A stretch of 64,000 nucleotides of DNA from Rhodospirillaceae bacterium (GTDB lineage: Bacteria > Pseudomonadota > Alphaproteobacteria > SHVZ01): positions 47,097 to 111,096 of the forward strand of contig JAEULB010000159.1 of the NCBI GenBank assembly GCA_016792585.1, written 5' to 3'. Within the stretch, counting starts at the first letter, position 1. Each line of letters begins with the position of its first letter. Below, one piece after another: positions 1,973 through 62,911 of this stretch. Under the pieces are notes generated by a model. The model was not told where the DNA came from and did no database searches. It saw nothing but the letters and a program-made list of their open reading frames with translations. The position numbers and the translations under genes were made by a program.

Positions 1973-1993
1973 TCCGATGGAAGCGGGTCGGCC

Positions 1994-19905: not shown

Positions 19906-20282
19906 GCGAGTTCCTTCGCGAGCTCGTCCAACATGTGGAAGGCGGTGTTGGCCGCAGGCACGCCGCAGTAGATCGCCTGCTGCAGCACGATCTCCTTGAG
20001 GTCGTCGGGAGAGAACCCGCCCTCGACAAGCGCCGCGCGCGCATGCATGCGGAACTCGTCCCAGCGCGACAGCGCAAGCAGGGTGCCGATCACCAGGATC
20101 CGCCTGGTGCGGATGTCGAGGCCGGGTCGGGTCCAGATCTCGCCCCAGGCGTAGCGCGTGATCAGGTCCTGGAAGTCGCGCGTGAGGTCGTTGGTCTTCG
20201 CCACCGAGCGGTCGACATGGGCGTCGCCGAGCACCTTGCGGCGGACGCTCATGCCGGCGGCATGGCGCTCCTTCTCATCCAT
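19902..20282 (-). CDS. pcaC: 4-carboxymuconolactone decarboxylase
   Basis: 126 aa of the CMD family (RYAWGEIWTRPGLDIRTRRIL...QAIYCGVPAAN). Sits in a pca gene context. Confidence 0.85.
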   Translation of the reverse strand: MDEKERHAAGMSVRRKVLGDAHVDRSVAKTNDLTRDFQDLITRYAWGEIWTRPGLDIRTRRILVIGTLLALSRWDEFRMHARAALVEGGFSPDDLKEIVLQQAIYCGVPAANTAFHMLDELAKELA

Positions 20283-22879: not shown

Positions 22880-22934
22880 CCGATGAGTCCCGGTGAATCC
22901 TGCCCGCATGTTAGCAGCCGTCCGCGAATTGCGC

Positions 22935-23010: not shown

Positions 23011-24108
23011 ATGGCCGAGACGACGCGCTATCACCGGATCGCGCCCGCCAACCTCAAGAAGGCGATCATGCTCGTCTTCGCACAGGTCGGCAGCAGCACG
23101 CGCGAGCAGGAGCTGACCGCAGACCACCTGGTCGCGGCCAACCTCGCCGGCCACGACTCCCACGGCGTCGGGATGATCCCGGCCTACCTGCAGGCCTGGC
23201 GCGAGAAGAAGCTGACGATCAATGGCCGGCACACGGTCGCGGTCGACTCGGGACCGATCCTGACCGTCGATGGCGGCTTGGGCCTCGGCCAGGTGATCGC
23301 CTACGACGCGATGAACCTCGGCATGGAGCGGGCGAGGCAGATGGGCGTCTGCATCCTCGGCATCCGGAACGCTCATCACACCGGCCGCATCGGCCACTGG
23401 GCCGAGCAATGTGCCGCCGGGGGCTTCGTCTCGATGCACTATGTCGCGGGCTTCGCCGGCGTGACCTCGGTCGCCCCCTTCGGCGGCAGCCAGACCCGCT
23501 TCCAGACCAATCCCTATTCAGCGGGATTCCCGCTGCCGGGCCGGCCGCCGATCATCCTCGACTTCGCCACCTCGAAGATCGCGATGGGCAAGGTGCGCGT
23601 CGCCTTCAACAAGGGCGAGCAGGTGCCGGAGAACTGCCTGATCGACGCCGAGGGCAAGCCCACCCGCGATCCGGGCGTGATGTACGCGCCGTCCGACAAG
23701 CGCGGCGCCCTCTTCACCTTCGGCGAGCACAAGGGCTCGGGGCTGGCGATGATCTGCGAGCTGTTCGCCGGCGCGCTCACCGGCGGCGGCACGACATACC
23801 CGGGCAACTACGAGAACCGCCCGATCATGAACAGCATGCTGTCGATCATCGTCGAGCCGTCCAGGCTCGGCGGCGGCGACAATGTCGGGCCCGAGGCGAA
23901 CCGCTTCGTCGACTGGGTCAAGTCATCGAAGCCGTTGCCGGGCGTCCAGGAAGTGCTGGTCGCGGGCGAGCCCGAGCGCAAGCGCCGCGCCGAGCGCGAG
24001 CGCGACGGCATTCCCGTCGACATCACCACCTGGAGCGAGGTGGCGAAGGCTGCCGAAGCCGCCGGCCTCAAGCGTTCCGACCTCGACAAGGCAGCGAGCC
24101 TCGCCTGA
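23011..24108 (+). CDS. Ldh_2 family (malate/L-lactate/ureidoglycolate-type) dehydrogenase
   Basis: 365 aa from MAETTRYHRI. Motifs GHDSHGVGMIP and NAHHTGRIG are typical of Ldh_2. Confidence 0.75.
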   Translation: MAETTRYHRIAPANLKKAIMLVFAQVGSSTREQELTADHLVAANLAGHDSHGVGMIPAYLQAWREKKLTINGRHTVAVDSGPILTVDGGLGLGQVIAYDAMNLGMERARQMGVCILGIRNAHHTGRIGHWAEQCAAGGFVSMHYVAGFAGVTSVAPFGGSQTRFQTNPYSAGFPLPGRPPIILDFATSKIAMGKVRVAFNKGEQVPENCLIDAEGKPTRDPGVMYAPSDKRGALFTFGEHKGSGLAMICELFAGALTGGGTTYPGNYENRPIMNSMLSIIVEPSRLGGGDNVGPEANRFVDWVKSSKPLPGVQEVLVAGEPERKRRAERERDGIPVDITTWSEVAKAAEAAGLKRSDLDKAASLA

Positions 24109-25598
24109 TGGCGAAGATGCTTTCGTGGTCCGAGTGGTCGTCGCTCGACGCGATCGCATTGGCCAAGCGGATACGCTCCGGCGAGATCAGCGCGAAGGAA
24201 GCTGCTCAGCAGGTCGCCGCCGGCATCGCCCAGCTCAATCCGAAGCTGAGGGCCGTGCTGGAGGTGTTCGAGGAGGTCGTCGCCAATCCCGACACGGACG
24301 GCCCGGACCGCGCTGGCCCCTTCTACGGCGTGCCGCTGCTGCTCAAGGACGTACTGTCGGGCCTCAAGGGCCGGAAGCTCGAGAACGGCTCGCGACAGTT
24401 CCGGGGCAACGTGGCACAGGCGACCGACCCGCTGATCGAGAACTATCTCGGCATGGGCCTGGTGCCGATCGGGCGGTCGACGACGCCGGAGTTCGGCTGG
24501 ACCTTCGACACCACCACCGACTACCTCGACGAGCTGATCGTCACCCGCAGTCCCTGGAACCTCGAGCGCACGCCTGGCGGATCCTCCGGCGGATCGGCGG
24601 CGATGGTCTCGGCCGGCGTGCTGCCGATCAGCATGGCCTCCGACGGCGGCGGCTCGATCCGCATCCCGGCCTCGTTCTCAGGTCTCGTCGGACACAAGCC
24701 GTCGCGAGGCCTGGTGCCGCGGAACCTCTCGTCCAGCGAGTACATGACCCGCCATGTCTACGAAGGCGTGGTGACACGGACCGTGCGCGACACGGCGCTT
24801 GCCCTCGACGGGCTCGCGCGCGGGCCGGAAGGCGGTTTCTTCATCCGGGCGACACCGGCCGTCCCCTCCTTCCTCGCCGCGATCGGCGACCTGCCGACGC
24901 GATGGCGGATCGGATTCTCCTGCGGGTCCTGGGGAGCCAGGTCGCCGGTCGACGCGGCCGTCGTCCAGCGGCTCGGCGAGGTCGCGAAGCTCCTCGAGAG
25001 CCTCGGCCATACGGTCGAGGAGGTGAAGGACGCCGACCTCTGCGATTTCGAAAGGCTCCGGCGCGGCTACACGACCCACAATCGCGCCGTCCGGCGCGGC
25101 CAGATCGAGGCGGCCAGGCAGCGCGGCCAGAGCCTCGAGGATCTGGCCAAGCTGATGTCGCCGACCTACTACCAGCACATGCTCACCTCGCAGGAAACGA
25201 CGCTGTTCGACCTGCAGCGCGCATTCGCCGACAACAACGCCTCGATCCGCAGCTTCGGTCACGCCATGGCGACGTTCGACGCGCTGCTGACGCCGACCCT
25301 GTCAATCCGCGTGCCGAAGGCCAACGGCCCCTACTCGCCCTACAGCGACGAGCCCTTCGCGCCCTGGTTCGAGCGTCTCTACGATGCCTGCCGCTACACC
25401 ATCCCAGGGAACGAGACCGGCATGCCCTCAGTCTCGGTTCCGGCCGGCCTCGATGCCGACGGCATGCCGATCGGCGCGCTGCTCCACGGCAAGTTCGGAC
25501 GCGACGACATGGTGCTCAGACTCGCCGCCCAGATCGAGGCGGCGAAACCCGAGTGGTTCTCGCCGAGACCTCGCCACCACATCGCGGCCAATCCGTAG
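24108..25598 (+). CDS. amidase (amidase-signature family), copy 1
   Basis: 496 aa. Start overlaps the Ldh_2 stop (TGATG). Contains LLLKDV (Lys) and [33 protein letters not shown] (Ser-cisSer). Confidence 0.85.
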   Translation: MAKMLSWSEWSSLDAIALAKRIRSGEISAKEAAQQVAAGIAQLNPKLRAVLEVFEEVVANPDTDGPDRAGPFYGVPLLLKDVLSGLKGRKLENGSRQFRGNVAQATDPLIENYLGMGLVPIGRSTTPEFGWTFDTTTDYLDELIVTRSPWNLERTPGGSSGGSAAMVSAGVLPISMASDGGGSIRIPASFSGLVGHKPSRGLVPRNLSSSEYMTRHVYEGVVTRTVRDTALALDGLARGPEGGFFIRATPAVPSFLAAIGDLPTRWRIGFSCGSWGARSPVDAAVVQRLGEVAKLLESLGHTVEEVKDADLCDFERLRRGYTTHNRAVRRGQIEAARQRGQSLEDLAKLMSPTYYQHMLTSQETTLFDLQRAFADNNASIRSFGHAMATFDALLTPTLSIRVPKANGPYSPYSDEPFAPWFERLYDACRYTIPGNETGMPSVSVPAGLDADGMPIGALLHGKFGRDDMVLRLAAQIEAAKPEWFSPRPRHHIAANP

Positions 25599-47310: not shown

Positions 47311-47472
47311 GACCACCCCTTCATGAGCCCGCCGCCCCAATAGCACATCCGGCGCGAGACCCGTCACGGAGCCGTGTTTCCAGGACGGACGTTCCCGATT
47401 GCCAAGCCTTTGAGAGGCATCATAGGCTTTCCTCATTCCTTATCATTCTTGTCCCTAGGGGAGGTTCGCATC

Positions 47473-49023
47473 GTGCTCAGATTGACCCTGTTGACGACGG
47501 TCAGCGCGCTCGCGCTGGCGGTCGCCATCTCGCCGGCGCTGGCGCAGAAGAAGGGCGGCAACGCCGTCGTCGGCACCTCCTCGGCGCCGCCGCTGACCGA
47601 TGCGCAGGCCTCCACGGCCGAAGCGTCGCGCAACATCTCGCTGCACTGGATCGAGACGCTGTTCGCGCGCGACGAGAACGCTAACGTGATCCCCGACCTC
47701 GCGACCAAGGCCGACATCTCGGCCGACGGCAAGACCTACGTGTTCACGCTGCGCGAGGGCGTGAAGTTCCACAACGGCCAGGAGATGACGTCGGAAGACG
47801 TGATCGCCTCGCTCGAGCGCTACGGCAAGGTCGGCGGCTCCGCCCAGATCATCAAGCCGATCACCAAGATGACCGCGACGTCGAAGTACGTCGTGACCGT
47901 CGAGCTGACCCAGCCGGTCCCGGGCTTCCTCGACCAGCTCTCCAGCCCGCGCGCCCCGGCCGGCATCATGCCGAAGTCGGAAGCCGGCAAGGAGCGCGGC
48001 AAGATCGACCACATCGGCACCGGCCCGTACCAGTTCGTCGAGTACATCCCGGACAGCCACGTCCAGGTGAAGCGCTTCGACGCCTACACGCAGAACAACA
48101 ACTTCCAGAAGCGTGACGGCTTCGGCGGCAAGAAGACCGCCTATTTCGACACCGTCCGCTTCCGTCACATCCCCGAGGGCGGCGCCCGCTCGGCCGCGCT
48201 CGAGGCCGGCGAGATCCATGCCGTCGACGCGCTGCCGCCGCCGTCGGCGAAGCGCCTCAAGGACAACCGGAACATCAAGATCATCGAGGCGATGCCCTGG
48301 GCGTTCCAGACCATCATCGTCAACGCTTCCTTCGGCCCGACCAAGGACCAGAAGGTGCGTCAGGCGATCCAGGCGATCATCGACGCCGAAGAGATCATGG
48401 CGATCGCGGGTGAAGGCCTTTATCGCCTGACCCATGGCTGGCAGCATCCGGGCACGACCTACTTCGCCGGCGACATCGGCAAGTCGGACTACAACGCGAA
48501 GGATCTGGCGAAGGCCAAGCGCCTCCTCGCCGAAGCCGGCTACAAGGGCGAGGAGATCGTCATCCTCACCGACTCGACGATCGCCAACCACCAGCAGACC
48601 GGCGTCGTCGCCGCCGAGCAGCTGAAGAAGGCCGGGCTCAACATCAAGCTCAACACGGTGGACTGGCCGACCGCATTCCAGCTTCGCGCCAAGCCGGAAG
48701 GCTGGAGCCTGTGGACGCTCGGCTTCGGCATCGAGCCCTACGAGGGCCCGTACAACGTGACCTCGTTCTTCGCCACCGACTACGACGGCAAGGGCGCCCA
48801 GTGGCTGGCCGACCCCGAGCTGCAGCGCGCCAACAACGTGCTGAACACCGCCCTCAAGCTCGAGGACCGGCAGAAGGCCTTTGCCGACTTCCAGAAGCGG
48901 TTCTTCGAGTTCGTCCCGGCCATCAAGGTCGGCGACCTCGGCCGCTACCAGGCGGTCCGCGCCAACGTGCAGAACTATGCGCCGGGCCGCATCCCGCGCA
49001 TGTGGGACGTCTGGTTCGAGTAA
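47473..49023 (+). CDS. ABC transporter substrate-binding protein, family 5 (no adjacent permease)
   Basis: GTG start 8 nt after GGGGAGG. Signal peptide VLRLTLLTTVSALALAVAISPALAQ. 516 aa. Confidence 0.8.
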   Translation: MLRLTLLTTVSALALAVAISPALAQKKGGNAVVGTSSAPPLTDAQASTAEASRNISLHWIETLFARDENANVIPDLATKADISADGKTYVFTLREGVKFHNGQEMTSEDVIASLERYGKVGGSAQIIKPITKMTATSKYVVTVELTQPVPGFLDQLSSPRAPAGIMPKSEAGKERGKIDHIGTGPYQFVEYIPDSHVQVKRFDAYTQNNNFQKRDGFGGKKTAYFDTVRFRHIPEGGARSAALEAGEIHAVDALPPPSAKRLKDNRNIKIIEAMPWAFQTIIVNASFGPTKDQKVRQAIQAIIDAEEIMAIAGEGLYRLTHGWQHPGTTYFAGDIGKSDYNAKDLAKAKRLLAEAGYKGEEIVILTDSTIANHQQTGVVAAEQLKKAGLNIKLNTVDWPTAFQLRAKPEGWSLWTLGFGIEPYEGPYNVTSFFATDYDGKGAQWLADPELQRANNVLNTALKLEDRQKAFADFQKRFFEFVPAIKVGDLGRYQAVRANVQNYAPGRIPRMWDVWFE

Positions 49024-49882: not shown

Positions 49883-50188
49883 ATGTGCACCTCGATCATT
49901 GAGATCGCGCCGGCCGAAGGCATGGCGAAGCGCGGCGACGAGTGGTTCCCGCTCTCCCGGGCCGTGATCGCCTATGACCACGCCCGGCACGCGCCTCTGG
50001 GCGACGTCATCACGCTCGACTTCACCAATGCGGCCCTCGATCCCGGCGCCAGGGCGGCGGTGGAGCTGACGCTGGCCTCGGCCAGGGAACTTCGCGCCGC
50101 CCTTGACCGCGCCATCGCCGCTGCGGAATACGAGGAAGCCGAAGTGCGCGGCAAGGGTGCCGCCCTCTATCTCCTGCGGAGCGCGTGA
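49883..50188 (+). CDS. hypothetical protein, 101 aa
   Basis: ORF packed 10 nt after the previous gene and 1 nt before the next. GC3-rich codon pattern. I recognise no family. Confidence 0.45.
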   Translation: MCTSIIEIAPAEGMAKRGDEWFPLSRAVIAYDHARHAPLGDVITLDFTNAALDPGARAAVELTLASARELRAALDRAIAAAEYEEAEVRGKGAALYLLRSA

Positions 50189-50948: not shown

Positions 50949-51690
50949 CGCGCTGCCACTGATCGAGGTCTGCGTCGAGGGCGTCGAGGGGCTGCTGGCC
51001 GCCCAGGATGGCGGCACCGATCGTGTCGAACTTTGCGCCAGCCTGATGGAAGGCGGGATTACGCCGAGCCTCGGCACCGTCCGGCAGGCGCAACACCTCG
51101 CCGCAATTCCGTTCTTCACGATCGTCCGTCCGCGCGGCGGCGACTTCCTCTATTCGACGGCCGAGTTCGTCTCCATGCTCGAAGACGTCGAGGCGCTGCG
51201 CGACTTGGGAGTTCCGGGTGTCGTCTTCGGGTGCCTGACCGCCGATGGGCGGATCGACGAGGAACGTATGACGGCCCTGGTCGCGCGCGCCGGTGCGATG
51301 CAGGTCACCTGTCATCGCGCCTTCGACATGACCGCCGATCCGATCGAAGCGCTCGAAGCACTGGTCCGCTGCGGCGTGCACCGCGTGCTCACCAGCGGCC
51401 AGCGCGATACCGCCCTCGAAGGGGCGCCGCTTCTGCGCGAGCTGGTACATCGGGCCGGCGACCGCATCGTCGTCATGGGCTGCGGCCGCCTGAACGCGTC
51501 CACGATCGGCGAGGTGCGGCGGCTGACCGACCTCAAGGAGATGCACTTTTCGGCGCCCGCCCAGCAGCCAAGCGGCATGACCTATCGCAATCCCCATATC
51601 CGCATGGGCGGGCCATCGGACCGCGAGTACACCGCCACGGTCACCGATCCTGATGCCGTGCGGGCCACCATCGCCGCCGCCCGCGCCTGA
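50941..51690 (+). CDS. cutC: copper homeostasis protein CutC family
   Basis: 249 aa. LIEVCVEGVEGLLAAQDGGTDRVELC...HRAFD...RVLTSG is typical of CutC. GTG start overlaps the previous gene by 8 nt. Confidence 0.8.
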   Translation: MADALPLIEVCVEGVEGLLAAQDGGTDRVELCASLMEGGITPSLGTVRQAQHLAAIPFFTIVRPRGGDFLYSTAEFVSMLEDVEALRDLGVPGVVFGCLTADGRIDEERMTALVARAGAMQVTCHRAFDMTADPIEALEALVRCGVHRVLTSGQRDTALEGAPLLRELVHRAGDRIVVMGCGRLNASTIGEVRRLTDLKEMHFSAPAQQPSGMTYRNPHIRMGGPSDREYTATVTDPDAVRATIAAARA

Positions 51691-51693
51691 GGG

Positions 51694-52149
51694 TCAGCCG
51701 GGTTCCTTCATCACGGTGATGTCGACCACGCGGTTGCGAGGCTCGGACTTCTCGTCGGCCGTCGCGACATCCGGCCGGCGTTCGCCGGTCCAGCCCCAGT
51801 CGATCCGTGCCGTCGGCATCCCGGCGGCAACGAGCTCGGCCAGGACCGCCTCGGTCCGCCGCTTCGACAGCGCCATGTTGACCGGCGGGGAACCGACGCG
51901 GTCGGTCTTCCCGATCACCCGCACGCTCATCTTGTCGTTGTTGGCGGCGACGGCGGCGATCGCGGCGACGACGGCCTGTCCGCGCGCATCGATCTCGGCG
52001 CTGTCGGTGTCGAAGAAGACCTGGTACTCCGTGCGCGCTTCCGCCGGCGCCACGACGGCCTGGGTCGTCGGCGCCGGCCGGGCGCATCCCGCGATGGCGA
52101 CCGAAAGCGTCAGCAAAAGCGCCGCGAGCCGGTTCTTCGGGTAGGGCAT
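51694..52149 (-). CDS. OmpA-family lipoprotein
   Basis: 151 aa from MPYPKNRLAALLLTLSVAIAGC (lipobox). OmpA_C-like FFDTDSAEI...NMALSKRRTEAV. GGAGACAGGA RBS. Confidence 0.75.
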   Translation of the reverse strand: MPYPKNRLAALLLTLSVAIAGCARPAPTTQAVVAPAEARTEYQVFFDTDSAEIDARGQAVVAAIAAVAANNDKMSVRVIGKTDRVGSPPVNMALSKRRTEAVLAELVAAGMPTARIDWGWTGERRPDVATADEKSEPRNRVVDITVMKEPG

Positions 52150-52319
52150 TCCTGTCTCCAACTTCCGGTTGGCTTGTATCGGTACGGCTGGCCCGTCCCG
52201 GACGGGACGAACCAGGGCTGAATTGACCCGAAAGGGGATTGTGCCGGTGAGGTGAGTGCGCAGGCGTAGGCGAGCTATGGGTAACTGAACACCCCATCGG
52301 CCCGGAAGTTCCCGGATGA

Positions 52320-53075
52320 TTACGCCGCGCGCGCCGGCTCCGCCGTCGCCCAGGCGACGCAGGCGAGCGCCAGCGCGTCGGTCGCATCGAAGCACCGCTC
52401 CAGGATCTCTTTCCGCGCCGGGGCCAAGCCGACCGGGACCTCGGTGCAGCCGAGGACGACCCGGGCGGCCCCCGCCGCGAGCAGCCGCTCGACCGCTTCC
52501 TCGAGCAGCGGCGTAGCGCCCTGGGTATCGCCGGTCTTGACCTTGCGGACCGCCGGCCAGAACAGGCGCTCGCTCTCCTCGGGCCCGAGGGCCAGGCATT
52601 CGTAGCCATGCGCTTCGAGGCGGTCCTGATAGACCCGCGTCCGGACCGTCGCCTCGGTTCCGATCAACCCGACCCGGCCCTTCGGCACACCGAGCGCCAC
52701 GAGCCGCTCGGCGGCGGTCTCGCCGATGTGCAGCAGCCGGGCGCCACAGCCTCGCCGGAGGCCCTCATACCAGTAGTGCGCCGTGTTGCAGGCGATCGCG
52801 ATGCATCCGGCGCCCATCTGCTCCAGCCGCCGGACGCCCTCCTGCATCATCGGCAGCGGCGACTCGCCGGTACCGAAGATCGCCGCGGACCGGTCCGGGA
52901 TCTGCGGCACCGACCAGGCGACCATCGGGATGTGGTCCTGGTCCTTCGTCGCCGGGGTCGCCTCGATCACTTTGCGCATGAAGTCGGTGGTCGCCAGCGG
53001 CCCCATGCCGCCCAGCACGCCGATCATACGCCGGCCCACCCGAGAGGCGCGGCCACCGGAATCATCCGTCGTCAT
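52320..53075 (-). CDS. aspartate/glutamate racemase family protein
   Basis: 251 aa from MTTDDSGG. Contains IGVLGGMGPLAT and both catalytic Cys contexts (IACNTAHYW and LGCTEVP). ATGA overlap with the upstream gene. Confidence 0.8.
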   Translation of the reverse strand: MTTDDSGGRASRVGRRMIGVLGGMGPLATTDFMRKVIEATPATKDQDHIPMVAWSVPQIPDRSAAIFGTGESPLPMMQEGVRRLEQMGAGCIAIACNTAHYWYEGLRRGCGARLLHIGETAAERLVALGVPKGRVGLIGTEATVRTRVYQDRLEAHGYECLALGPEESERLFWPAVRKVKTGDTQGATPLLEEAVERLLAAGAARVVLGCTEVPVGLAPARKEILERCFDATDALALACVAWATAEPARAA

Positions 53076-53479
53076 GGGTCGACCGCGTACTTCTTGAGGT
53101 CTTCGAGCGAGCAATAGGCGAGCGCCCCTTCATGCGTCGCGCGCAGGACGACCTTCGGCGCGCGGCCGGCCTCCAGCGCCTCCTGCCAGCGCGGGGCGCA
53201 GAGGCACCATCGGTCGCCAGGCTTGAGTCCGGCGAAGCCGTATTGCGGATAGGGCGTCGAAAGGTCGTTGCCCACGCTTCTCGAATATTCCAGGAACTCG
53301 GCCGTGGTCACGCAGCAGACCGTGTGGCTGCCGATATCCTCGGGCGAGGTGTCGCAGCAGCCGTTGCGGAAGAAGCCGGTCACGGGATCGAGCGAGCAAT
53401 CTTCGAGCTTGCCACCGAGCACGTTCCTGGAAGGGCGGCGTCCGCCGCCCCCTCCCCATCTTTGATCGTCTAGTGGCAT
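53072..53479 (-). CDS. DUF2237 family protein
   Basis: 135 aa. NVLGGKLEDCSLDPVTGFFRNGCCDT...HTVCCVTTAEF...WCLCAPRW matches my recollection of the DUF2237 Cys-rich pattern. Confidence 0.7.
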   Translation of the reverse strand: MPLDDQRWGGGGGRRPSRNVLGGKLEDCSLDPVTGFFRNGCCDTSPEDIGSHTVCCVTTAEFLEYSRSVGNDLSTPYPQYGFAGLKPGDRWCLCAPRWQEALEAGRAPKVVLRATHEGALAYCSLEDLKKYAVDP

Positions 53480-53523
53480 TGTCCGGCTGCCGTCGATGGA
53501 CCCTGCCGGATACTACCGCAGCC

Positions 53524-55248
53524 TCACGCCGCCCGCGCCTTCTTCGTCGCCTCGGCATCGACCACCGGCGGCTCGCCGGTGATGACGACGCCATAGGCCA
53601 GGCGCGCGTGCTCGCGGTCGACCTTGCCGAGCTTCACATCCTCCAGCACGCACTCGGGATCGCGCTCGAACGGGTTGCCCCAGCCGCCAGCGCCTGGAAG
53701 CACGTGGCGGAAGAGATCGCCGTTGCGAAGCGTCACCGGGTTGGTGATCAGCACCGGGAGGCTGCGTGCCTCGCCGTCGGGGTTGACGATCGACAGGCAC
53801 GGTGCCCCCGCCCTGCCGCCGGAAAGGCCGAAGGGCGGGAAGCGGCGCTTGTCCGAGCGAAGGGTCATCGTGCCGGCGTCGCCGAGGAAGCGATAGTCGC
53901 GGATCATCGACAGCCCGCCACGATACTTGCCGGGCCCGCCGGTGTTCGGCACCAGGCCGTACTGCTCGATGCGGATCGGATACTCGGCCTCGATCATCTC
54001 GACCGGTACGTTCGACTGGTTGGCACCCATGTGGGTCACGCCTTCCTGGCCGTCGCCGGAGGCCGATCCGCCCCAGTTGCCCATGAAGGTCTCGACGAAG
54101 ACGAAGGGCTTGCCCTGGTACTCCCCGCCGATCGCCGGGATCGAGGAGCCGCCATTGCCGTCCGCCGGCACCCGGTGCGGTACCGCCTGGGCCAGCGCGC
54201 CGAACACCGTGTCCATGGTGCGGAAGCCGGTGATGCCACGGGCGCCGCAGGCGCCGGGCGGGCGCGGGTTGACGATGGAGCCCAACGGCGCCTTCACATG
54301 GATCGGCCGGGTGAAGCCCTGGGCGTTCGGGATCTCCTCGCCCATGATCGAGCGGATCGCCGCATAGCAGGCGGCCTTGGTGAAGGGCACCGGCGCGTTG
54401 ATGCCCGCCGGCACCTGCGGCGACGTCCCGTCCAGGTCGACGGTGATCTCGTCGCCGGCGACCGTGACGGCGGCGCAAAAGCGGATCGGCTCCGGGTTCT
54501 CGCCGAAGCCGTCGATCCAGGACTCGAACCTGTAGGTGCCGTCCGGGATCTCGGCGATCACCGAGCGGGCCAGGCGCTCGGCATGGTCATGGATCTCGGC
54601 GAAGGTCGCGCGCAGCGTCGCCTTGCCGTACTTGGCGAACAGCGACTGGATCTCGCGCACGCCGATCGCGGTCGCGGCAATCTGGGCATTCAGGTCGCCC
54701 AGCACCTTCTCCGGCACGCGCACGTTCGCCGAGAGGATGTCGAGGACGGCCTGGTTGTCCACGCCGTTCGAGCTGAGCTTGATGAACGGCAGGCGCAACC
54801 CTTCCTGGTAGATGTCGGTCGAGCCGATCGAGTTGCTGCCCGGAACGATGCCGCCGATGTCGTTGTGGTGCGCGACCGTGGTCGCCCAGGCCTCCAGCGT
54901 GCCTTCCACGAACACCGGCCGGATGATGTAGATGTCCGGCAGGTGCTGGCCGGCCGAGAGATAGGGGTCGTTGAAGATGAAGACATCCTTCTCGGCGACG
55001 TCGCCTTCGTAGCGCCGGATCAGCGCCTGCATCGCGTCGTGGAAGCTGCCGAGGTGCAGCGGCGTGGTGAGCCCCTGAGCCAGCGTGCCACCTTTGGCAT
55101 CGCAGACCGCCGTCGAGTAATCCATCGAGTCGCGCACGATGCCGGAGCAGGCGGTCCGCAGCACGATCAGCGCGATCTCGTCGGCGACCGCATCGAGCGC
55201 GTTGCGGACGATCTCGGTCAGCACCGGGTCGATATTGTGCTTGGCCAT
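53524..55248 (-). CDS. hyuB: hydantoinase B / oxoprolinase family protein
   Basis: 574 aa. The opening IDPVLTEIVRNALDAVADEIALIVLRTACSGIVRDSMDYSTAV is typical of Hydantoinase_B. Confidence 0.85.
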   Translation of the reverse strand: MAKHNIDPVLTEIVRNALDAVADEIALIVLRTACSGIVRDSMDYSTAVCDAKGGTLAQGLTTPLHLGSFHDAMQALIRRYEGDVAEKDVFIFNDPYLSAGQHLPDIYIIRPVFVEGTLEAWATTVAHHNDIGGIVPGSNSIGSTDIYQEGLRLPFIKLSSNGVDNQAVLDILSANVRVPEKVLGDLNAQIAATAIGVREIQSLFAKYGKATLRATFAEIHDHAERLARSVIAEIPDGTYRFESWIDGFGENPEPIRFCAAVTVAGDEITVDLDGTSPQVPAGINAPVPFTKAACYAAIRSIMGEEIPNAQGFTRPIHVKAPLGSIVNPRPPGACGARGITGFRTMDTVFGALAQAVPHRVPADGNGGSSIPAIGGEYQGKPFVFVETFMGNWGGSASGDGQEGVTHMGANQSNVPVEMIEAEYPIRIEQYGLVPNTGGPGKYRGGLSMIRDYRFLGDAGTMTLRSDKRRFPPFGLSGGRAGAPCLSIVNPDGEARSLPVLITNPVTLRNGDLFRHVLPGAGGWGNPFERDPECVLEDVKLGKVDREHARLAYGVVITGEPPVVDAEATKKARAA

Positions 55249-55250
55249 GG

Positions 55251-57335
55251 TCAGGATCCGAAGACGACGTTGACGTTGCCGAGCGCGTCGCGCGAGGCCG
55301 AGGCGCCGGGGGGAACGACGGTGGTGCCTTCGTACTCCTCGATGATCAGCGGTCCCTGCCTGGGGCTCGAGGTCAGCGCGGCGCGGCCGAGCACCGGCGT
55401 GTCGATGCGGCCGTGACGCGGGCCGAAGTAGGCAGGGCGCCTCAGCTCCTTTGCTTCACCGCGGCCGGATGAGACCTTCATGGTCTCGGCCGAGCCGCCG
55501 GCCGGCGCTGTCGCGGTCACCGAGAGAGCCACGATCTCGGTCGGCACCGTGCCGCGGAAATTATGGCCGTAGGTGGCCTGATGCTCGGCCTCGAAGCGCG
55601 CCGGCAGTGCTTTCAGCGTCTTGGCCGTCGCCGTGCCGTCGGGGATCGCGACCGGCAGCTCGAAGGCCTGGCTGGTGTAGCGCATCGAGGCGACGCGCAA
55701 GAGGGTCGCCGTCTTCGCCCAAGGCCCCAGCTTCGCCAGCACCTCGGCAGCAAGCTCATCAAGGATGCGCGAGACCTCGGCCGGATCGGCGGTGAGCGTC
55801 TGCTTGAGGTATCCCCGCGAGCGGCCGAAGGCCACGTCGGAAACCAGGAGCCCGATCGCCGAGAGCACGCCCGCCGCCGGCGGCACGATCACGCGCGCGA
55901 TGCCGAGCTCCTTCGCCAGATGCGGGCCGAAGACGCCGCCATTGCCGCCGAAGGCGACGAGGCCGAACTCGCGCGGGTCGCGGCCGCGATAGGTGGAGAC
56001 CGCCTTGAGTGCCCGCATCATCGTCGCCGATGCGACCTCGAACACGCTCCAGGCCGCGGCTTCCGCCGTGGTGCCGAGGCGGTGCGCGACCATCTCCTCG
56101 ATCACGGCTTTCGCCTTCGCGGCATCGATCGGCACTGTGCCGCCCGCCAGCGCCGTCGGGTTGACGAAGCCCAGGATCACATTGGCGTCCGTCACCGTCG
56201 CCTCGGCGCCGCCGAGGCCATAGCAGGCAGGCCCCGGCATGGCGCCGGCGCTTTCCGGACCGACCTTGAGGCCGCCACCGCGGTCGAATCTGACCAGGCT
56301 GCCGCCGCCGGCGCCGACCTCCGATATGTCGATCACCGGCAGCTTCAGCGCATATCCGCCGCCTTTCACCAGGCGGCTCGAGAGCGAGATGCCACCGCCG
56401 ACCTCGTACTCGTCAGTATGCGCGATCTTGCCGCCTTCGATCAGCGAGGCTTTCGCCGTGGTGCCGCCCATGTCGAGCGTCAGCACATCCTTCATGCCGG
56501 CGGCGGACGCGACCTGCGCCGCGCCGATCACGCCGGCGGCCGGACCGCATTCGACGATGCGCGCCGGCTGGTCCATCACCGTCGGCGCGTCGAGGATGCC
56601 GCCGGACGACTGCATCACCAGCAGCCTGCCGGCAACGCCGTCACCCGCGAGACGCCTGGCCAGCGCGCCGATATAGGTCTTCACCGGCGGGCCGACATAG
56701 GCGTTCACCACCGAGGTGCTGGTCCGCTCGTACTCGCGGATCTCCGGCAGGATGTCGACCGAGAGCGTGACGAAGGCGTCCGGGAACGCCTGTCTCAGCT
56801 TCTCGCCGACGCGACGCTCGTGATCCGGGTTCGCATAGGAGTGGAGGAAGCAGACGGCGATCGCCTCGACGCCGGCCTTCCGGATCTCGGCGACGGCGCG
56901 ATCGAGATCCTTCTCGTCCAGCGGCGTCAGAACGCTGCCGTCCGGGTTCAGGCGCTCGGTCACCTCGAAACGCAGGTTGCGCGGCACCAGCGGCTGCGGC
57001 TTGACCCAGAGCGGATCGTAGAGCTTCGGCACGCGAACGCGGCGAAGCTCGAGCACGTCGCGGAACCCCTTCGTGGTGATCAGCGCGGTCTTCGCCCCCT
57101 TCCCTTCCAGGATCGCGTTGGTAGCGACCGTGCAGGCATGCAAGACCTCGGAGACGTCGGCGCCTTTCACTCCGCACGCCCTCAGGAGATCGCGGACGCC
57201 GTCGACCACCGCCGCGGCGTAGTCGGCGGGCGTCGACAGCACTTTGTGGGTGGCGATGGTGCCGTCGGGAAGCGTCGCGGCGATGTCGGTGAAGGTGCCG
57301 CCGATGTCGGCGGCGATGCGAATGGCGGAACTCAT
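55251..57335 (-). CDS. hyuA: hydantoinase A / oxoprolinase family protein
   Basis: 694 aa from MSSAIRIAADIGGTFTDIA. The 794-aa track ORF is an upstream extension. 2-nt gap to hyuB. Confidence 0.85.
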   Translation of the reverse strand: MSSAIRIAADIGGTFTDIAATLPDGTIATHKVLSTPADYAAAVVDGVRDLLRACGVKGADVSEVLHACTVATNAILEGKGAKTALITTKGFRDVLELRRVRVPKLYDPLWVKPQPLVPRNLRFEVTERLNPDGSVLTPLDEKDLDRAVAEIRKAGVEAIAVCFLHSYANPDHERRVGEKLRQAFPDAFVTLSVDILPEIREYERTSTSVVNAYVGPPVKTYIGALARRLAGDGVAGRLLVMQSSGGILDAPTVMDQPARIVECGPAAGVIGAAQVASAAGMKDVLTLDMGGTTAKASLIEGGKIAHTDEYEVGGGISLSSRLVKGGGYALKLPVIDISEVGAGGGSLVRFDRGGGLKVGPESAGAMPGPACYGLGGAEATVTDANVILGFVNPTALAGGTVPIDAAKAKAVIEEMVAHRLGTTAEAAAWSVFEVASATMMRALKAVSTYRGRDPREFGLVAFGGNGGVFGPHLAKELGIARVIVPPAAGVLSAIGLLVSDVAFGRSRGYLKQTLTADPAEVSRILDELAAEVLAKLGPWAKTATLLRVASMRYTSQAFELPVAIPDGTATAKTLKALPARFEAEHQATYGHNFRGTVPTEIVALSVTATAPAGGSAETMKVSSGRGEAKELRRPAYFGPRHGRIDTPVLGRAALTSSPRQGPLIIEEYEGTTVVPPGASASRDALGNVNVVFGS

Positions 57336-57486
57336 GGGGGCCGAGCCTAGGGCGAAGGAATTGAGGGGTCGAGTAGCGCTTCCCGATTTAACCCGATAAG
57401 CGTCGCTGATAGGCCCGATCAGCGCCGTTTCACCTTTGCAATCCGCGGCTTGGAAGCACCCGCGGAGACGCCTAGCCTCGGGCCTC

Positions 57487-59511
57487 ATGAAGCCCGTCCG
57501 CACCAAGTATCCCCGCCGCGTCCGCACCATCGAGAACGTCTTCATCCCGATGCCGGACGGCCGCAAGCTCGCCGCCCGCATGTGGATTCCGGAGGACGCC
57601 GAGACCGACAAGGTGCCGGCGCTCATGGAATACATGCCCTACCGCAAGCGCGACCAGAGCCGCGCCCGCGACGAGGCGATCCATCACTATCTCGCCGGCC
57701 ATGGCTATGCGTCGTTCCGAGTCGACACGCGCGGCTCAGGCGACTCCGACGGTCTGCTCCGCGGAGAATGGGAGCAGGGCGAGATCGATGACGGGCTCGC
57801 GATCATCGACTGGTTCGTCAAACAGCCCTGGTGCTCGGGCGCCGTCGGCATGATCGGCAAGTCGTGGAGCGGCTTCTCGGCGCTGGCGCTCGCCGGCACC
57901 GCTCATCCGGCCCTCAAGGCGATCATCCCGGTCTGCGCCGGCGACGACCGCTATCACCAGTCGCTGCACTGGACAGGCGGCACCTTCCTGGCCGAGCAGC
58001 TGTGGTGGACCGACACCATGGTGATCTTCAACGCGCGCCCGCCCGATCCGGAGATCGTGGGCGATCGGTGGCGCGAGATGTGGAAGGCGCGGCTCGACGA
58101 CAATCATCCCTGGATGATCGACTGGCTGAAGCATCAGCGCCGCGACGCTTTCTGGAAGCACGCCTCGCTCTCTGAGAAGGACAAGGTGACGGCCGCGGTC
58201 TTCGCCGTCGGCGGCTGGGCCGACTACATATCGCGCGCGGTGCCCAGGATGATGTCGAACCTGAAAGGCCCGCGCTTCGCGCTGCTGGGCCCCTGGGGCC
58301 ATCACTATCCGCATGACGGCGTGCCGCCGCCGACGACCGGCTTCCTGCAGGACTGCATCCGCTTCTTCGACCGCTACTGCAAGAACCTCGACAACGGCTG
58401 GGACAAGGAGCCGACGTACCGCGCCTTTCTCTCCTCCTTCCAGAAGCCGTCGACGAAGTATGCAGAGAAGCCCGGCCGCTGGGTGGCGCTCGACGCGTGG
58501 CCGTCCGACATGGTCCAGCGGCTCGCCTTCCATCTCAACTCCGGCCGCCTCGACAAGCGCGGCAGGCCAGAGCAGGCGCTGCAGCATTCTTCGCCGCTCG
58601 CGACCGGCTTCGCCGCGACCGAGTGGCTCAGCATGGATATCGAGGGCGAGCAGCCGCGCGACCAAAGAGAGGACGACGGCCGCTCCCTTACCTTCGACTC
58701 CGATCCGCTGACGAAGACTATCGACATCCTCGGCCGTGCCTCGCTCGAGATCGACGTCGCCGTCGACCGGCCGGTGGCCCAGCTCTGCGCGCGCCTCTGC
58801 GACGTGGCGCCGGACGGCACCTCGGTCCGCGTCGCGTTCCAGGTCCTCAACCTGACCCATCGAGACAACCACGAACAGCCGACGGCGCTGACGCCTGGCA
58901 AGCGCATGCGCGTCCGCCTCGACCTTCCGGATGTGGGCTACAGCTTCACCAAAGGGCACCGGGTGCGCCTGGCGCTCTCCACCTCCTACTGGCCGATCGT
59001 CTGGCCGGCGCCGGAGTCGGTGACGATGACGGTCTTCACCGGCGCCAGTACCTTCTCGCTGCCGGTGCTGAAGGGCACGACGAAGAAGCCGAAGTTCGGC
59101 ACGAACGAGCGCGGGCCCGAGATCGCGGTCGAGGTGATCGAGCCGAAGAAGATCGAGCGGCGCATTGTCCAGGACGGCATGACTGGCGAGATCGCGGTCG
59201 AGACCATCGGCACCGGCGGCTTCCTCGGCCCCGGCCGCAAATGGAAGATCACGCCGATCGGCACCGTGATCGGCCACACGCTCTACAAGCGCTTCGGCAT
59301 CGTCGAGGGCGATCCGACCTCGGCCAAGGGCGAGTACCGCCAGACCTACGAGCTGGAACGCGGTGACTGGAAGATCCGCATCCAGACGCATCTGACTTTC
59401 CACGCCACCAAGACCGACTGGGTGCTGAAGCAGGAGGGCGTCGCCTATGAAGGCGACACCGAAGTCTTCCGCAAGACCTGGTCCCACACCCAGCCGCGAG
59501 ACCTGATGTGA
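57487..59511 (+). CDS. CocE/NonD family hydrolase (S15 X-Pro dipeptidyl-peptidase fold), copy 1
   Basis: 674 aa from MKPVRTKYPRRV. Contains EYMPYRKRD, RVDTRGSGDSDG and the nucleophile elbow GKSWSG. Confidence 0.8.
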   Translation: MKPVRTKYPRRVRTIENVFIPMPDGRKLAARMWIPEDAETDKVPALMEYMPYRKRDQSRARDEAIHHYLAGHGYASFRVDTRGSGDSDGLLRGEWEQGEIDDGLAIIDWFVKQPWCSGAVGMIGKSWSGFSALALAGTAHPALKAIIPVCAGDDRYHQSLHWTGGTFLAEQLWWTDTMVIFNARPPDPEIVGDRWREMWKARLDDNHPWMIDWLKHQRRDAFWKHASLSEKDKVTAAVFAVGGWADYISRAVPRMMSNLKGPRFALLGPWGHHYPHDGVPPPTTGFLQDCIRFFDRYCKNLDNGWDKEPTYRAFLSSFQKPSTKYAEKPGRWVALDAWPSDMVQRLAFHLNSGRLDKRGRPEQALQHSSPLATGFAATEWLSMDIEGEQPRDQREDDGRSLTFDSDPLTKTIDILGRASLEIDVAVDRPVAQLCARLCDVAPDGTSVRVAFQVLNLTHRDNHEQPTALTPGKRMRVRLDLPDVGYSFTKGHRVRLALSTSYWPIVWPAPESVTMTVFTGASTFSLPVLKGTTKKPKFGTNERGPEIAVEVIEPKKIERRIVQDGMTGEIAVETIGTGGFLGPGRKWKITPIGTVIGHTLYKRFGIVEGDPTSAKGEYRQTYELERGDWKIRIQTHLTFHATKTDWVLKQEGVAYEGDTEVFRKTWSHTQPRDLM

Positions 59512-61424
59512 CCGAAAAGCTCTACAGCCGCGCTCCCTCCTTCGGCGTCGTCGTCTCCGAGGACGTGATGGTGAAGATGGCCGACGGGATCCATCTCGCC
59601 ACCGACATCTACCGCCCGGCCCTTCCCGACGGCTCGCCCGCGCCCGGCAAGTTCCCGGTGATCTTCACCCGCACTTCCTACGACAAGTCGAACCCGGTGA
59701 TGCAGATCGGGCCGGTGGCGAAGTTCTTCACGCCCAGAGGCTACGTGACCGTGGTGCAGGACCTGCGCGGCCGCGGCCTCTCGGAAGGCCATGGCCAGTA
59801 CTTCCACGTGGCCAATGTCCGCGAGGGGCTCGACGGCGTCGATTCACTTGCGTGGATCGCGAGCCAACCCTGGTGCGACGGGCGCGTCGGCATGGTCGGC
59901 AGCTCGCATTCCGGCATCGTTCAGAACGTCGCCGCCTTCCATAAGCCGCCGTCGCTGAAGGCGCTGTGGGTCGACGTCTGCCCGACCTCGGCCTTCGATT
60001 GGGAGGCGCGCCAGGGCGGCGCCCAGGCGCTGCAGATGTTCGCCGCCCTCTTCCTGCACGGCTGGGACGTGCCGGAGATCCAGAACGATCCCGCCGCCAA
60101 GCGGCGGATCGAGTCGGCGGTCGAGAACATGCGCTCGCTGCTGCCGACCGGCCCCTGGAAGAAGGGACAGAACCCGCTCTCGGTCGTGCCCAACCTCGAG
60201 CAGGTCCTGATGCGCTACCAGAACAACGGCATCAAGGACGACTGGTGGAACATGGAGGTGCTGGAGCACAAGGCGCACTTCGACCGTTTCGCTGATATCC
60301 CCTGCGTCGTCTCCTCGGGCTGGTTCGATCCCTTCGTCGCCGATGTCGCCGGCCAATACCAGGCGCTGTCGAAGCGCCTGAAGTCTCCGCAGCGCATGAT
60401 CGTCGGCCCCTGGGGCCATGCCGGCATGCGCGCCGGCGGCAGCGCCTCGATCGAGGTCGATTTCGGCCCGGGCGCCGACTGGGGCTATCGCGTCTACAAC
60501 GCCGAGCGGCTTCGCTGGTTCGACAAGTGGCTGAAGGACATCGACACCGGCGTCGAGAGGGACGTGCCGGTGCGCTACTTCGAGATGGGGGGCGGCACCG
60601 GCACCCGCACCAGGCGCAGGCACCTCGACCATGGCGGCGTCTGGCGCGCCGCCGGCCAGTGGCCGCCGACGGGCTCGACACCGACGACGTTCTATCTCGC
60701 CGCCGACGGCGTGCTCGCGACGGCGCCGGCCGATGCGGCGCCGATCTCTTGGACGCATGACCCCGACCATCCGGTCGCCACCATCGGCGGCGCGGTTGCC
60801 GGCTTCCTCGAATGGGTGAAGCCGGGCGAGGGCATGGACCTCTCCTATGTCAGCCCCCGCGCGCGCATGCGCTCGCTCGTCCCCGACGGGCCGATGCACC
60901 AGAAGGAGCGCCCCGATCAGGTCGGCTCGCGTCCACCCTACCCGCTGCTGGCCGAACGGCCCGATGTGCTCGTGTTCGAGACCGCGCCGCTGAAGGAAGA
61001 CGTGGTGATCGCCGGCCCGATCGAGGCCAAGGTCTGGGTCGCCTCCTCCGCACTCGACACCGACGTGACCGTGAAGCTGCTCGACATCTCGCCGCCGACG
61101 GCGGAAGACCCCGCCGGCTTCCACATGCTGCTCTGCGACTCGATCCGGAGGCTCCGCTTCCGCAACGGCTACGACAAGGAGGAGCTGCTGGCGCCCGGCG
61201 AGATCGTCGAGGTGACCGTCGAGCTTCCGCCCTTGTCGAACCGCTTCAAGGCCGGCCACCGGATCCGCGTCGACATCGCGTCGTCGAACTTCCCGCGCTT
61301 CGACATCAACCCGGGCACAGGCGAGCCGCTCGGCCGCCATACCCACAAGGTCAAGGCGCGGAACACGCTCCATCTCGACAAGAAGCATCCGTCGCACATC
61401 GTGCTGCCGGTGATGAAAGGCTGA
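59508..61424 (+). CDS. CocE/NonD family hydrolase, copy 2
   Basis: 638 aa. GTG start overlaps the previous stop (GTGA). Contains VQDLRGRGLSEG and the elbow GSSHSG. Confidence 0.8.
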   Translation: MTEKLYSRAPSFGVVVSEDVMVKMADGIHLATDIYRPALPDGSPAPGKFPVIFTRTSYDKSNPVMQIGPVAKFFTPRGYVTVVQDLRGRGLSEGHGQYFHVANVREGLDGVDSLAWIASQPWCDGRVGMVGSSHSGIVQNVAAFHKPPSLKALWVDVCPTSAFDWEARQGGAQALQMFAALFLHGWDVPEIQNDPAAKRRIESAVENMRSLLPTGPWKKGQNPLSVVPNLEQVLMRYQNNGIKDDWWNMEVLEHKAHFDRFADIPCVVSSGWFDPFVADVAGQYQALSKRLKSPQRMIVGPWGHAGMRAGGSASIEVDFGPGADWGYRVYNAERLRWFDKWLKDIDTGVERDVPVRYFEMGGGTGTRTRRRHLDHGGVWRAAGQWPPTGSTPTTFYLAADGVLATAPADAAPISWTHDPDHPVATIGGAVAGFLEWVKPGEGMDLSYVSPRARMRSLVPDGPMHQKERPDQVGSRPPYPLLAERPDVLVFETAPLKEDVVIAGPIEAKVWVASSALDTDVTVKLLDISPPTAEDPAGFHMLLCDSIRRLRFRNGYDKEELLAPGEIVEVTVELPPLSNRFKAGHRIRVDIASSNFPRFDINPGTGEPLGRHTHKVKARNTLHLDKKHPSHIVLPVMKG

Positions 61425-61429
61425 AGCCC

Positions 61430-62911
61430 ATGCGTATCGCGACCATCCACGTCGGCCAGGAAACCAACGACTTCAACCCGCTGCCGACGACGATCGACGA
61501 CTTCAAGGCCTTCGGCATTCTCGAAGGCCAGGAGATCATCGAGAAGATGGCCGGCAAGGGCCAGGTCGGCGGCTGCGTCGACGCGATGGCGGCTTCGGGC
61601 ATGAACGTCGAGTGGGTTCCGATCATCTCCGGCTGGGCGATGGCCGGCGGGCGCATCGACACCGGCGCACGTCTGTTCTTCGAGGAGCGGATCGGCACGG
61701 GCCTCCGCAAGGCGGGCAAGATCGACGCGCTGGCTCTCCACCTGCACGGGGCCGCCGCGGCCGAGGGCGTCGACGATGTCGAAGGCGCGCAGCTCGCGAT
61801 CTGCCGTGCCGTCCTCGGGCCGGACGTGCCGATCGTGCTCTCGCTTGACCATCACGCCAACGTCACGCGCCAGATGGTCGAGCTGTCGGACGCGATCGTC
61901 GCCCACCGCACCCAGCCGCACGACACCTACGACACCGGCCGGCTCGCCGGCGACATGCTGGTGCGCATCCTCAGGAAGGAGATCAAGCCGGTGATGGCCT
62001 GGCGGAAGATCCGCCTCGTCACGCATCAGGAACAGTTCCTCACGTCCCAGGGCCCGATGAAGAAGTGGTTCGACCAGGCCCGCGAGTGGGAGAAGAAGGA
62101 CAAGCGCGTGCTGCACGTGGCGCTCTGCCCGATGCAGCCCTGGCTCGACGTCACCGAGGGTGGCTGGACCACGATCGTCAACGTCGACGGCGACCGGGAT
62201 CTCGCCGAGAAGCTCGCCGACGAGTCCGCCGACTTCGCCTGGTCGATGCGGAAGGACTTCATGGTCAAGGAAGCGGTCGCGGTCGACGAGGCGGTGCGCC
62301 GTGCCCACCAGGCGGCCAAGGGCGTTGTCGTGCTCAGCGACACCGGCGACACGGTGTTCGGTGGCACCGCCGGCGACTCGAACCTGATCCTGGAGTCGAT
62401 CCTCCGCCTCGGCATCAAGAGCAAGGCGCTGATGCCGCTGATCGAGCCGCAGACGGTGGCGAAGCTGGTCGCCGCCGGCGAGGGCGCCGAGGTGACGCTT
62501 CCGGTCGGCGGTCACAGCTCGCCGAAGTTCTTCAAGCCGCTCCTCGTCACCGGCCGGGTGAGGAAGATCGCCTCGGGCGTGGTCAAGGTCCCGGTCTTCC
62601 AGCAGCCCGAGCACGACATGGGCCGCACCGTGTTCTTCGAGGTCGGGCCTGCGACGCTGATGGTCAGCGAGAAGCCCGGCGCCGCCGGCAACGTGCCCGA
62701 GGTCTATCGCTGGTTCGGCTACGAGCCATCGGACTTCAAGATGGCGGTCCTGAAGACTGCGTCGAACTTCCAGTTCTTCAAGCCGATCACCTCCGAGGTG
62801 ATTCGCGTCGACACCCGCGGCCCCGGCCAGTCCGACGTGGTCGGCCTGCCGTGGCAACGGGTGCCGCGGCCGATGTATCCGATGGAGGATCCGAAGAGCT
62901 GGCGCGGATAG
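61430..62911 (+). CDS. M81 family metallopeptidase (MlrC-like)
   Basis: 493 aa from MRIATIHVGQETNDFNP with LHLHGAAAAEGVDDVEG and SLDHHANV. This is the MlrC N- plus C-domain pattern. The track ORF 60812-62911 is an upstream extension. Confidence 0.75.
   Translation: MRIATIHVGQETNDFNPLPTTIDDFKAFGILEGQEIIEKMAGKGQVGGCVDAMAASGMNVEWVPIISGWAMAGGRIDTGARLFFEERIGTGLRKAGKIDALALHLHGAAAAEGVDDVEGAQLAICRAVLGPDVPIVLSLDHHANVTRQMVELSDAIVAHRTQPHDTYDTGRLAGDMLVRILRKEIKPVMAWRKIRLVTHQEQFLTSQGPMKKWFDQAREWEKKDKRVLHVALCPMQPWLDVTEGGWTTIVNVDGDRDLAEKLADESADFAWSMRKDFMVKEAVAVDEAVRRAHQAAKGVVVLSDTGDTVFGGTAGDSNLILESILRLGIKSKALMPLIEPQTVAKLVAAGEGAEVTLPVGGHSSPKFFKPLLVTGRVRKIASGVVKVPVFQQPEHDMGRTVFFEVGPATLMVSEKPGAAGNVPEVYRWFGYEPSDFKMAVLKTASNFQFFKPITSEVIRVDTRGPGQSDVVGLPWQRVPRPMYPMEDPKSWRG

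Follow-up and report, generated by a model that had tools for sequence, protein, structure and literature searches.

Probable recent juxtaposition of hyuAB, a DUF2237 gene and a CuyB-family racemase gene in a narrow freshwater alphaproteobacterial clade

Introduction

In Pseudomonas sp. NS671, 5-substituted hydantoins are converted by the products of the genes hyuA-hyuB-hyuC-hyuE, in which an ATP-dependent HyuAB-type hydrolase is accompanied by a hydantoin racemase and by an N-carbamoyl-amino-acid amidohydrolase that the conversion requires. The present work concerns a cluster of superficially similar make-up, hyuA-hyuB-DUF2237-racemase, found at positions 52320-57335 of a 64,000-nucleotide stretch of contig JAEULB010000159.1 from a Rhodospirillaceae bacterium (assembly GCA_016792585.1); the whole stretch is termed the window, and coordinates are those of the window unless another locus is named. 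An initial annotation of the sequence had read the cluster as a dedicated operon for hydantoin or 5-oxoproline utilisation with stereo-inversion, with the DUF2237 protein as a stoichiometric partner of the racemase. Systematic comparison with related loci makes it probable instead that three units with independent functions came to lie side by side only recently, and only within a narrow freshwater alphaproteobacterial clade.

The individual genes have closer described counterparts. N-methylhydantoinase (PDB 7HK5 and 9H03) and caprolactamase (PDB 6YRA; PMC8453981) are ATP-dependent enzymes whose two-subunit A and B architecture is shared by hyuA and hyuB of the window, with full-length Pfam matches. 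Biochemical work on Bilophila wadsworthia defined the cysteate racemase CuyB along with CuyA, a D-cysteate sulfo-lyase of the PF00291 family encoded nearby; the neighbourhood of that CuyB includes an SDF transporter, and a CuyB homologue lies near only 668 of 1720 CuyAs (PMC11193023). DUF2237 (COG3651; solved members PDB 4IOH, 3USH and 2LQ3) is typically a single-domain protein for which docking has suggested purine-nucleotide binding (bioRxiv 10.64898/2025.12.11.693642), its occurrence is statistically associated with phototrophy and proteorhodopsin (PMC5932025; bioRxiv 10.64898/2025.12.11.693642), and knockout of the Synechocystis member slr1628 causes a phototaxis defect (PMC5932025). A literature search on the DUF2237 PDB entries and COG3651 returned nothing past these two reports. 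For a widespread and very highly conserved family with three solved structures, a real and conserved partner would have been a valuable find.

Results and discussion

Gene identities and junctions of the cluster

All four genes lie on the minus strand. The gene hyuA (55251..57335; 694 aa; PF05378 and PF01968), encoding the ATP-binding hydantoinase/oxoprolinase subunit A, is followed after a 2-nt gap, read as TGA-CC-ATG, by hyuB for subunit B (53524..55248; 574 aa; PF02538). A 44-nt spacer (53480..53523), which is a novel junction marked by a break in blastn synteny, separates the hyuB stop from the ATG of the single-domain DUF2237 gene (53072..53479; 135 aa; PF09996), and the stop of the latter overlaps the start of the racemase gene (52320..53075; 251 aa; PF01177) as ccATGAcg. 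Pfam searches and direct reading of the sequence thus confirm the gene identities, coordinates, spacings and operon-like same-strand layout given by the initial annotation. Given the high GC content of the window (0.64-0.71), open reading frames (ORFs) were screened by third-position GC and Pfam; the four ORFs show third-position values of 0.87-0.89 and profile E-values of 1e-44 to 1e-168, by which chance ORFs are ruled out for all of them. Each of the four is present in a single copy within the window. A racemase start at M17, which would abolish the overlap, was considered and dropped, since the upstream start ATGAC(G/T)GA is kept in all five close relatives.

An Rfam scan of 51000-58000 at E-values up to 0.1 matched nothing. 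Scanning of 51500-57800 for promoters and terminators returned no promoter-like site and a sole terminator-like site, on the plus strand and below shuffle expectation; the spacer between hyuB and the DUF2237 gene is free of Rfam matches and of promoter- and terminator-like sites alike.

Linkage outside the clade

The co-occurrence of DUF2237 with racemase or hyu genes, proposed in the initial annotation as a check, was examined in two sets of loci. The DUF2237 scan covered one genome per species and took the best 80 of 594 confirmed loci (64-76% identity), searched over 7 kb on either side by tblastn with the window proteins; 67 of these loci extend 2 kb or more to either side of the gene. The racemase scan took the best 80 of more than 530 metagenomic matches (31-50% identity), of which, many contigs being short, only 30 offer that much flanking sequence. 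No racemase homologue was found around any of the 80 DUF2237 genes, a hyuA-like fragment was found near a single one (6 kb off), and neither DUF2237 nor hyuAB occurred near any of the 80 racemase homologues. Adjacency across separate lineages, by which a conserved operon is recognised, was therefore not observed, and the absence of conserved linkage is the outcome fixed in advance as telling against the proposal. When the ORFs neighbouring the 80 DUF2237 genes were clustered, every family was limited to 10 loci or fewer.

Nearer to the window the result is the same. DUF2237 genes at 81-84% identity stand in four unrelated contexts, all of them devoid of racemase and hyuAB: one with a creatinase/M24 and a C26 GATase gene; one with a DAO-type oxidoreductase and a tripartite ATP-independent periplasmic (TRAP) transporter, where a short hyuB-like fragment lies at the contig end, 4.4 kb from DUF2237; one with a GMC oxidoreductase and AhpC; and one with an NMT1-type binding protein. 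All four annotated replicons inspected, from Rhodobacter, Paracoccus, Chondrinema (Bacteroidota) and Halorientalis (Archaea), are without a racemase or hydantoinase gene near DUF2237. Fusions, also raised as a check, were not seen among the top 120 matches of each of the DUF2237, racemase and HyuB searches. The sequence identity of DUF2237 to its relatives decays smoothly (98, 90, 84, 83, 82, 81% and onward), while the racemase has a few close relatives at 77-97% and then drops to 54% or less, with one partial match at 69%; this disparity argues against a co-inherited racemase-DUF2237 pair.

Rearrangement history within the clade

The clade consists of six members, namely the window and the loci L081, L085, L091, L093 and L095, which share 80-95% nucleotide identity and synteny over about 18 kb (blastn). 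The DUF2237-racemase pair was found only where DUF2237 is at least 90% identical, and the gene order varies even at this depth. In L091 the order is hyuA-hyuB-OmpA-DUF2237-racemase; in L081 and L095 it is hyuB-OmpA, a response regulator and a histidine kinase gene on the opposite strand, and Kup-DUF2237-racemase-AraC; in L093, whose racemase is 77-78% identical, hyuAB is followed by two ORFs without Pfam matches and by racemase-AraC, and DUF2237 is absent. Only L085, at 95% nucleotide identity, has the order of the window, minus the OmpA gene. The four-gene order and the direct adjacency of hyuB and DUF2237 are thus confined to the window and L085, and the idea that hyuAB and DUF2237-racemase form one unit fails on the one to four genes that stand between them in three relatives and on the missing DUF2237 of a fourth.

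The variable element in several of these orders is a gene for an OmpA/Pal-like lipoprotein (51694..52149, minus strand; Pfam OmpA 61 bits; lipobox LSVAIAGC), which begins 170 nt downstream of the racemase in the window, lies between hyuB and DUF2237 in L091, L081 and L095, and is missing in L085. Breakpoints of blastn alignments fall on the borders of gene modules: at the hyuB stop (about 53523-53528), at the racemase stop, and at 53493, the last of these 14 nt ahead of the DUF2237 start codon. In this clade, the region that follows hyuB (51694-53523) is a hot-spot of indels and rearrangements.

It can be read from the alignment of the DUF2237-racemase junction that L091, L081 and L095 keep a spacer of 33-38 nt before the racemase start ATGAC(G/T)GA, and that the ATGA overlap is a deletion of this spacer, about 38 nt long, common to the window and L085 only. 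Because the relatives keep what these two have lost, the apparent translational coupling is a recent derived accident.

As further observations on this region, the response regulator-histidine kinase-Kup block is an insertion in two relatives, the OmpA-like gene moves or vanishes, CutC occurs only in the window and L085, and AraC follows the racemase in three relatives but does not do so in the window. The hyuB gene of L093 (7374-9107 of that locus) is called at 462 aa, but tblastn aligns 568 residues (7392-9095), a difference probably better explained by a frameshift or misassembly than by real truncation of the gene.

Family and likely substrate class of the racemase

The racemase matches PF01177 at 153 bits, exceeds the cutoff of the aspartate-racemase model TIGR00035 (156 bits against 93) and also exceeds that of NCBIfam NF052483 for the cysteate racemase CuyB (251 bits against 190). 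The homologues of about 50% identity that were scored all pass NF052483 too, at 194-269 bits, so this model may cover more than cysteate racemases. The description of the enzyme as a two-Cys racemase holds: the catalytic-Cys motifs IACNTAH (C96) and GCTEVP (C210) are both present, and the two cysteines, aligned to 3S7Z, are invariant in 21 sequences. Its best solved relatives are the aspartate racemases 3S7Z and 1JFL, and a comparison with solved chains at E-values of 1e-3 or lower retrieved aspartate, Asp/Glu and glutamate racemases only, with no hydantoin or allantoin racemase among them.

The protein accordingly shares its independence of pyridoxal 5'-phosphate (PLP) and its two catalytic-Cys motifs with aspartate racemases and with the B. 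wadsworthia enzyme CuyB (PMC11193023), and it passes both model cutoffs. The resemblance to CuyB extends to the surroundings, as homologues of the window racemase often adjoin SDF or amino-acid ATP-binding cassette (ABC) transporter genes. The association with CuyA, in contrast, is not seen: a scan of about 50 ORFs across the window, among them the called genes up to about 10 kb to each side of the racemase, gave no PF00291 match, and the 'cysteate' label is for this reason unconfirmed. A 'cysteate racemase' label of the kind given by the Prokaryotic Genome Annotation Pipeline (PGAP) calls for caution here. The neighbours of the 80 racemase homologues held no PLP-enzyme cluster; genes recurring there are those for polar-amino-acid ABC transporters, SDF dicarboxylate/amino-acid symporters and LysR regulators. 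On account of the recurrent ABC and SDF genes, an acidic amino acid would be the likeliest class of substrate, and the racemase most likely interconverts the D and L forms of such an amino acid.

hyuAB and its recurrent partners

HyuA scores 187 bits with Hydant_A_N and 282 bits with Hydantoinase_A, and HyuB scores 561 bits with Hydantoinase_B over the full profile; with both A and B domains present in genes 2 nt apart, the pair belongs to the hydantoinase/oxoprolinase family. In the PDB, HyuA matches best the fused N-methylhydantoinase 7HK5/9H03 (447 bits) and next the Pseudomonas jessenii caprolactamase 6YRA (331 bits); the corresponding scores of HyuB are 279 bits with 7HK5 and 248 bits with 6YRA_B. 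Scores with the caprolactamase CapAB equivalog models NF050156 and NF050157 (475 and 308 bits) stay far under the cutoff of 1000. Being closest to N-methylhydantoinase and caprolactamase and yet so far below these cutoffs, HyuAB is predicted to be an ATP-dependent hydrolase of cyclic amides (lactam or hydantoin type) in the N-methylhydantoinase/caprolactamase family. HyuA is 88-96% identical to its clade relatives; database homologues of HyuB stand at 83-90% and then at 68% or less, and the clade loci at 92-97% by tblastn.

Nine loci with HyuB homologues at 64-67% identity (L176-L184) were inspected, and both the racemase and DUF2237 are absent from all nine, in which hyuAB is 61-67% identical. 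The six loci L179-L184 (hyuAB at 61-65%) retain, near hyuAB, orthologues of genes that flank the cluster in the window. One is CocE/NonD family hydrolase 1 (57436..59511, plus strand; Peptidase_S15 and PepX_C; TIGR00976 208 bits), divergent from hyuA with about 100 nt between them and 50-51% identical in these loci. Another is CocE/NonD family hydrolase 2 (59508..61424, plus strand; TIGR00976 343 bits), whose orthologue, at 59-60%, adjoins LysR and hyuAB. The third is an SBP_bac_5 solute-binding protein of the peptide/opine/nickel type (47374..49023, plus strand; PF00496 261 bits), retained at 56%. Since these orthologues are kept at such distance, the divergent CocE/NonD pair and SBP_bac_5, rather than the racemase or DUF2237, are the evolutionarily stable partners of hyuAB. 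The same six loci also hold LysR, Amidohydro_3, class II aldolase and AstE/AspA-type genes, with a TRAP transporter in three of them, and the gene set looks like a conserved, uncharacterised catabolic module. HyuAB is most likely part of a module for the catabolism of peptide-like or amide compounds. In its genomic partners it differs from the described N-methylhydantoinase and caprolactamase, which belong with creatinine or caprolactam pathway genes. As a modest positive result, these stable companions steer substrate discovery toward peptide-like and amide catabolism and away from a hydantoin-racemisation pathway.

In L176-L178, hyuAB adjoins a TRAP transporter and LysR, with sarcosine oxidase subunits in one of the three. 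The hyuAB relatives of that locus, L176 (63-67% identity), adjoin SoxA/SoxG, unlike the window, where neither a sarcosine oxidase nor a carbamoylsarcosine amidase, as the context of N-methylhydantoinase (EC 3.5.2.14), was found near hyuAB. Positions 1-2091 and 6851-10749 of L176 carry sarcosine oxidase alpha and gamma, a PhyH-family gene and the TRAP transporter, a context consistent with a creatinine/N-methylhydantoin-type pathway in the lineage of L176. Next to the CocE/NonD genes of the window and in the same direction stands a gene for an M81 (MlrC-like) peptidase (61421..62911, plus strand; PF07364 and PF07171), which scores 143 against a cutoff of 999 with NCBIfam MlrC and is syntenic in L091 and L093.

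DUF2237 as a stand-alone protein

The DUF2237 protein matches PF09996 at 184 bits over positions 1-115 of the 115-position profile, and its fold was found only within its own family. It contains 8 Cys in 135 aa. The cysteine clusters GCCDT, CCVT and WCLC, for which a metal or an Fe-S cluster had been envisaged, are indeed present as NGCCDT, VCCVT and RWCLCA, and C28, C42, H52, C55, C92 and C94 are conserved in the 80 loci, which were selected partly by GCC and WCLC patterns; the same residues, among them the five cysteines of these clusters, are kept in two solved homologues. The remaining C41, C56 and C123 are lineage-specific and not conserved family-wide, and by these extra cysteines the window protein differs from the solved members. 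Its AlphaFold2 (AF2) model has low confidence over residues 30-50. Nothing in the window relates to the published phototrophy, phototaxis or nucleotide associations of the family.

Taken over the loci examined, DUF2237 is a widespread and highly conserved stand-alone protein that sits beside unrelated genes almost everywhere. The adjacency of racemase and hyu genes is not that of a conserved DUF2237 partner and should not serve to annotate the family. A neighbourhood with a Fur-family repressor and a Zn/Mn ABC transporter within 0.4-3.5 kb of DUF2237, seen in Rhodobacter sp. CZR27 (L185, 561-3532) and Paracoccus ferrooxidans (L186, 6722-10706), was entertained as a lead to metal binding and rejected as local synteny, for it does not recur in the 80 genome loci. 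Two DUF2237 copies within 6 kb were observed in two loci from metagenome-assembled genomes (L015, 7001-7372 and 13242-13613; L053, 7001-7396 and 4852-5181), one pair being direct and the other inverted; they point to occasional local duplication of an otherwise single-copy gene.

Competing explanations of the cluster

We consider it probable that the cluster arose when local deletions and rearrangements brought together three units: an hyuAB cyclic-amide hydrolase that would work with the CocE/NonD and SBP_bac_5 genes, a stand-alone DUF2237, and a CuyB-family racemase presumably acting on an acidic amino acid. Co-transcription in the window genome would then be a probable by-product of losing the intervening DNA. 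Several observations weigh against this explanation. The four genes follow each other closely on a single strand and no terminator was detected, so that co-expression may well occur; in five clade genomes the segment 53493..52326 keeps DUF2237 and the racemase side by side, with varying flanks; hyuAB and the racemase lie about 1-5 kb apart throughout the six-member clade, even in L093 with its missing DUF2237; and, with only the best 80 of the 594 DUF2237 and of the more than 530 racemase matches taken, more distant lineages are thinly sampled. Each gene is a regular representative of an established family. The juxtaposition is of little inferential value.

One rival explanation is the dedicated hydantoin or 5-oxoproline operon with stereo-inversion, in which DUF2237 would be a stoichiometric metal or Fe-S partner of the racemase. 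The tight same-strand spacing, the Cys-rich DUF2237 and the precedent of hyuA-hyuB-hyuC-hyuE in Pseudomonas sp. NS671 speak in its favour. The likeness to NS671, however, ends with an ATP-dependent HyuAB-type hydrolase near a racemase of the PF01177 superfamily: the window racemase is of the aspartate/cysteate (CuyB) type and not a hydantoin racemase, no carbamoylase stands nearby, and both defining features of hydantoin utilisation by hyu genes, the hydantoin racemase and the N-carbamoyl-amino-acid amidohydrolase, are therefore wanting. The only nearby M20 gene was tried as the missing N-carbamoylase and set aside, as it is of ArgE/DapE type (216 bits) and its 25 best NCBIfam matches include neither a carbamoylase nor a hydantase model. 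With the full order confined to the window and the 95% identical L085, and with no linkage elsewhere, we regard such an operon as highly improbable. A narrower proposal keeps DUF2237 and the racemase together as a functional two-gene cassette of the clade, DUF2237 being for example a thiol/redox or metal accessory. The inheritance of block 53493..52326 in five genomes would fit, since its upstream (hyuB, OmpA or Kup) and downstream neighbours (OmpA, CutC, SBP_bac_11 or AraC) change, and so would the gap between the two genes, always short at 33-38 nt or an overlap. Yet the pairing is missing from all 80 DUF2237 and all 80 racemase loci elsewhere, the racemase of L093 goes without DUF2237, no racemase lies near DUF2237 at 81-84% identity, CuyB-family homologues of about 50% identity do without DUF2237 in the loci examined, and the overlap is a recent deletion, so that a cassette is quite unlikely. 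The specific version in which DUF2237 was recruited in the clade as an accessory to the CuyB-type two-Cys racemase, for example by keeping its catalytic thiols reduced or by delivering a ligand, we hold to be very doubtful; were it true, it would open a first biochemical way into a family that about 17% of prokaryotes possess.

A clade-specific pathway joining hyuAB to the racemase, by which a cyclic amide would be opened to an (acidic) amino acid that is then inverted, with DUF2237 and OmpA as passengers, draws on the synteny of hyuAB with a racemase of 77-97% identity in six of the six clade members, the DUF2237-less L093 among them. An Amidohydro_3 amidohydrolase moreover fills the slot after hyuB in the loci where hyuAB is 61-65% identical, and as this family includes D-stereospecific deacylases, its presence hints at D-stereochemistry in the module. 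The clade is, however, so shallow in nucleotide identity and extent of synteny that shared ancestry explains the co-occurrence; the link vanishes outside the clade in both directions, and opposite-strand genes separate the two units in L081 and L095. We judge this pathway unlikely, and the juxtaposition of independent units remains the explanation that we prefer.

Other features of the window

A 101-aa ORF at 49883-50188, between the dienelactone hydrolase and SBP_bac_11 genes and without an NCBIfam match, occupies the site of a DUF6295 gene in L081, L085 and L091. The stretch 24110-25598 (of 23409-25598) gave no Pfam match in the frame tested, and a 915-aa ORF at 10684-13431 has its SBP_bac_5 domain only from residue 378 on, its start being probably over-extended. 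A protocatechuate branch cluster lies on the minus strand at 19902-22909, with beta- and alpha-like subunits of a 3,4-dioxygenase, a Lyase_1/ADSL_C cycloisomerase-like gene and a CMD-family decarboxylase. Three gamma-glutamyltranspeptidase paralogues are present, two in tandem (208-1917 and 1919-3667) and one at about 18400-19905, along with at least five SBP_bac_5 genes, an amidase and several peptidases, a gene content which suggests an amide- and peptide-scavenging lifestyle.

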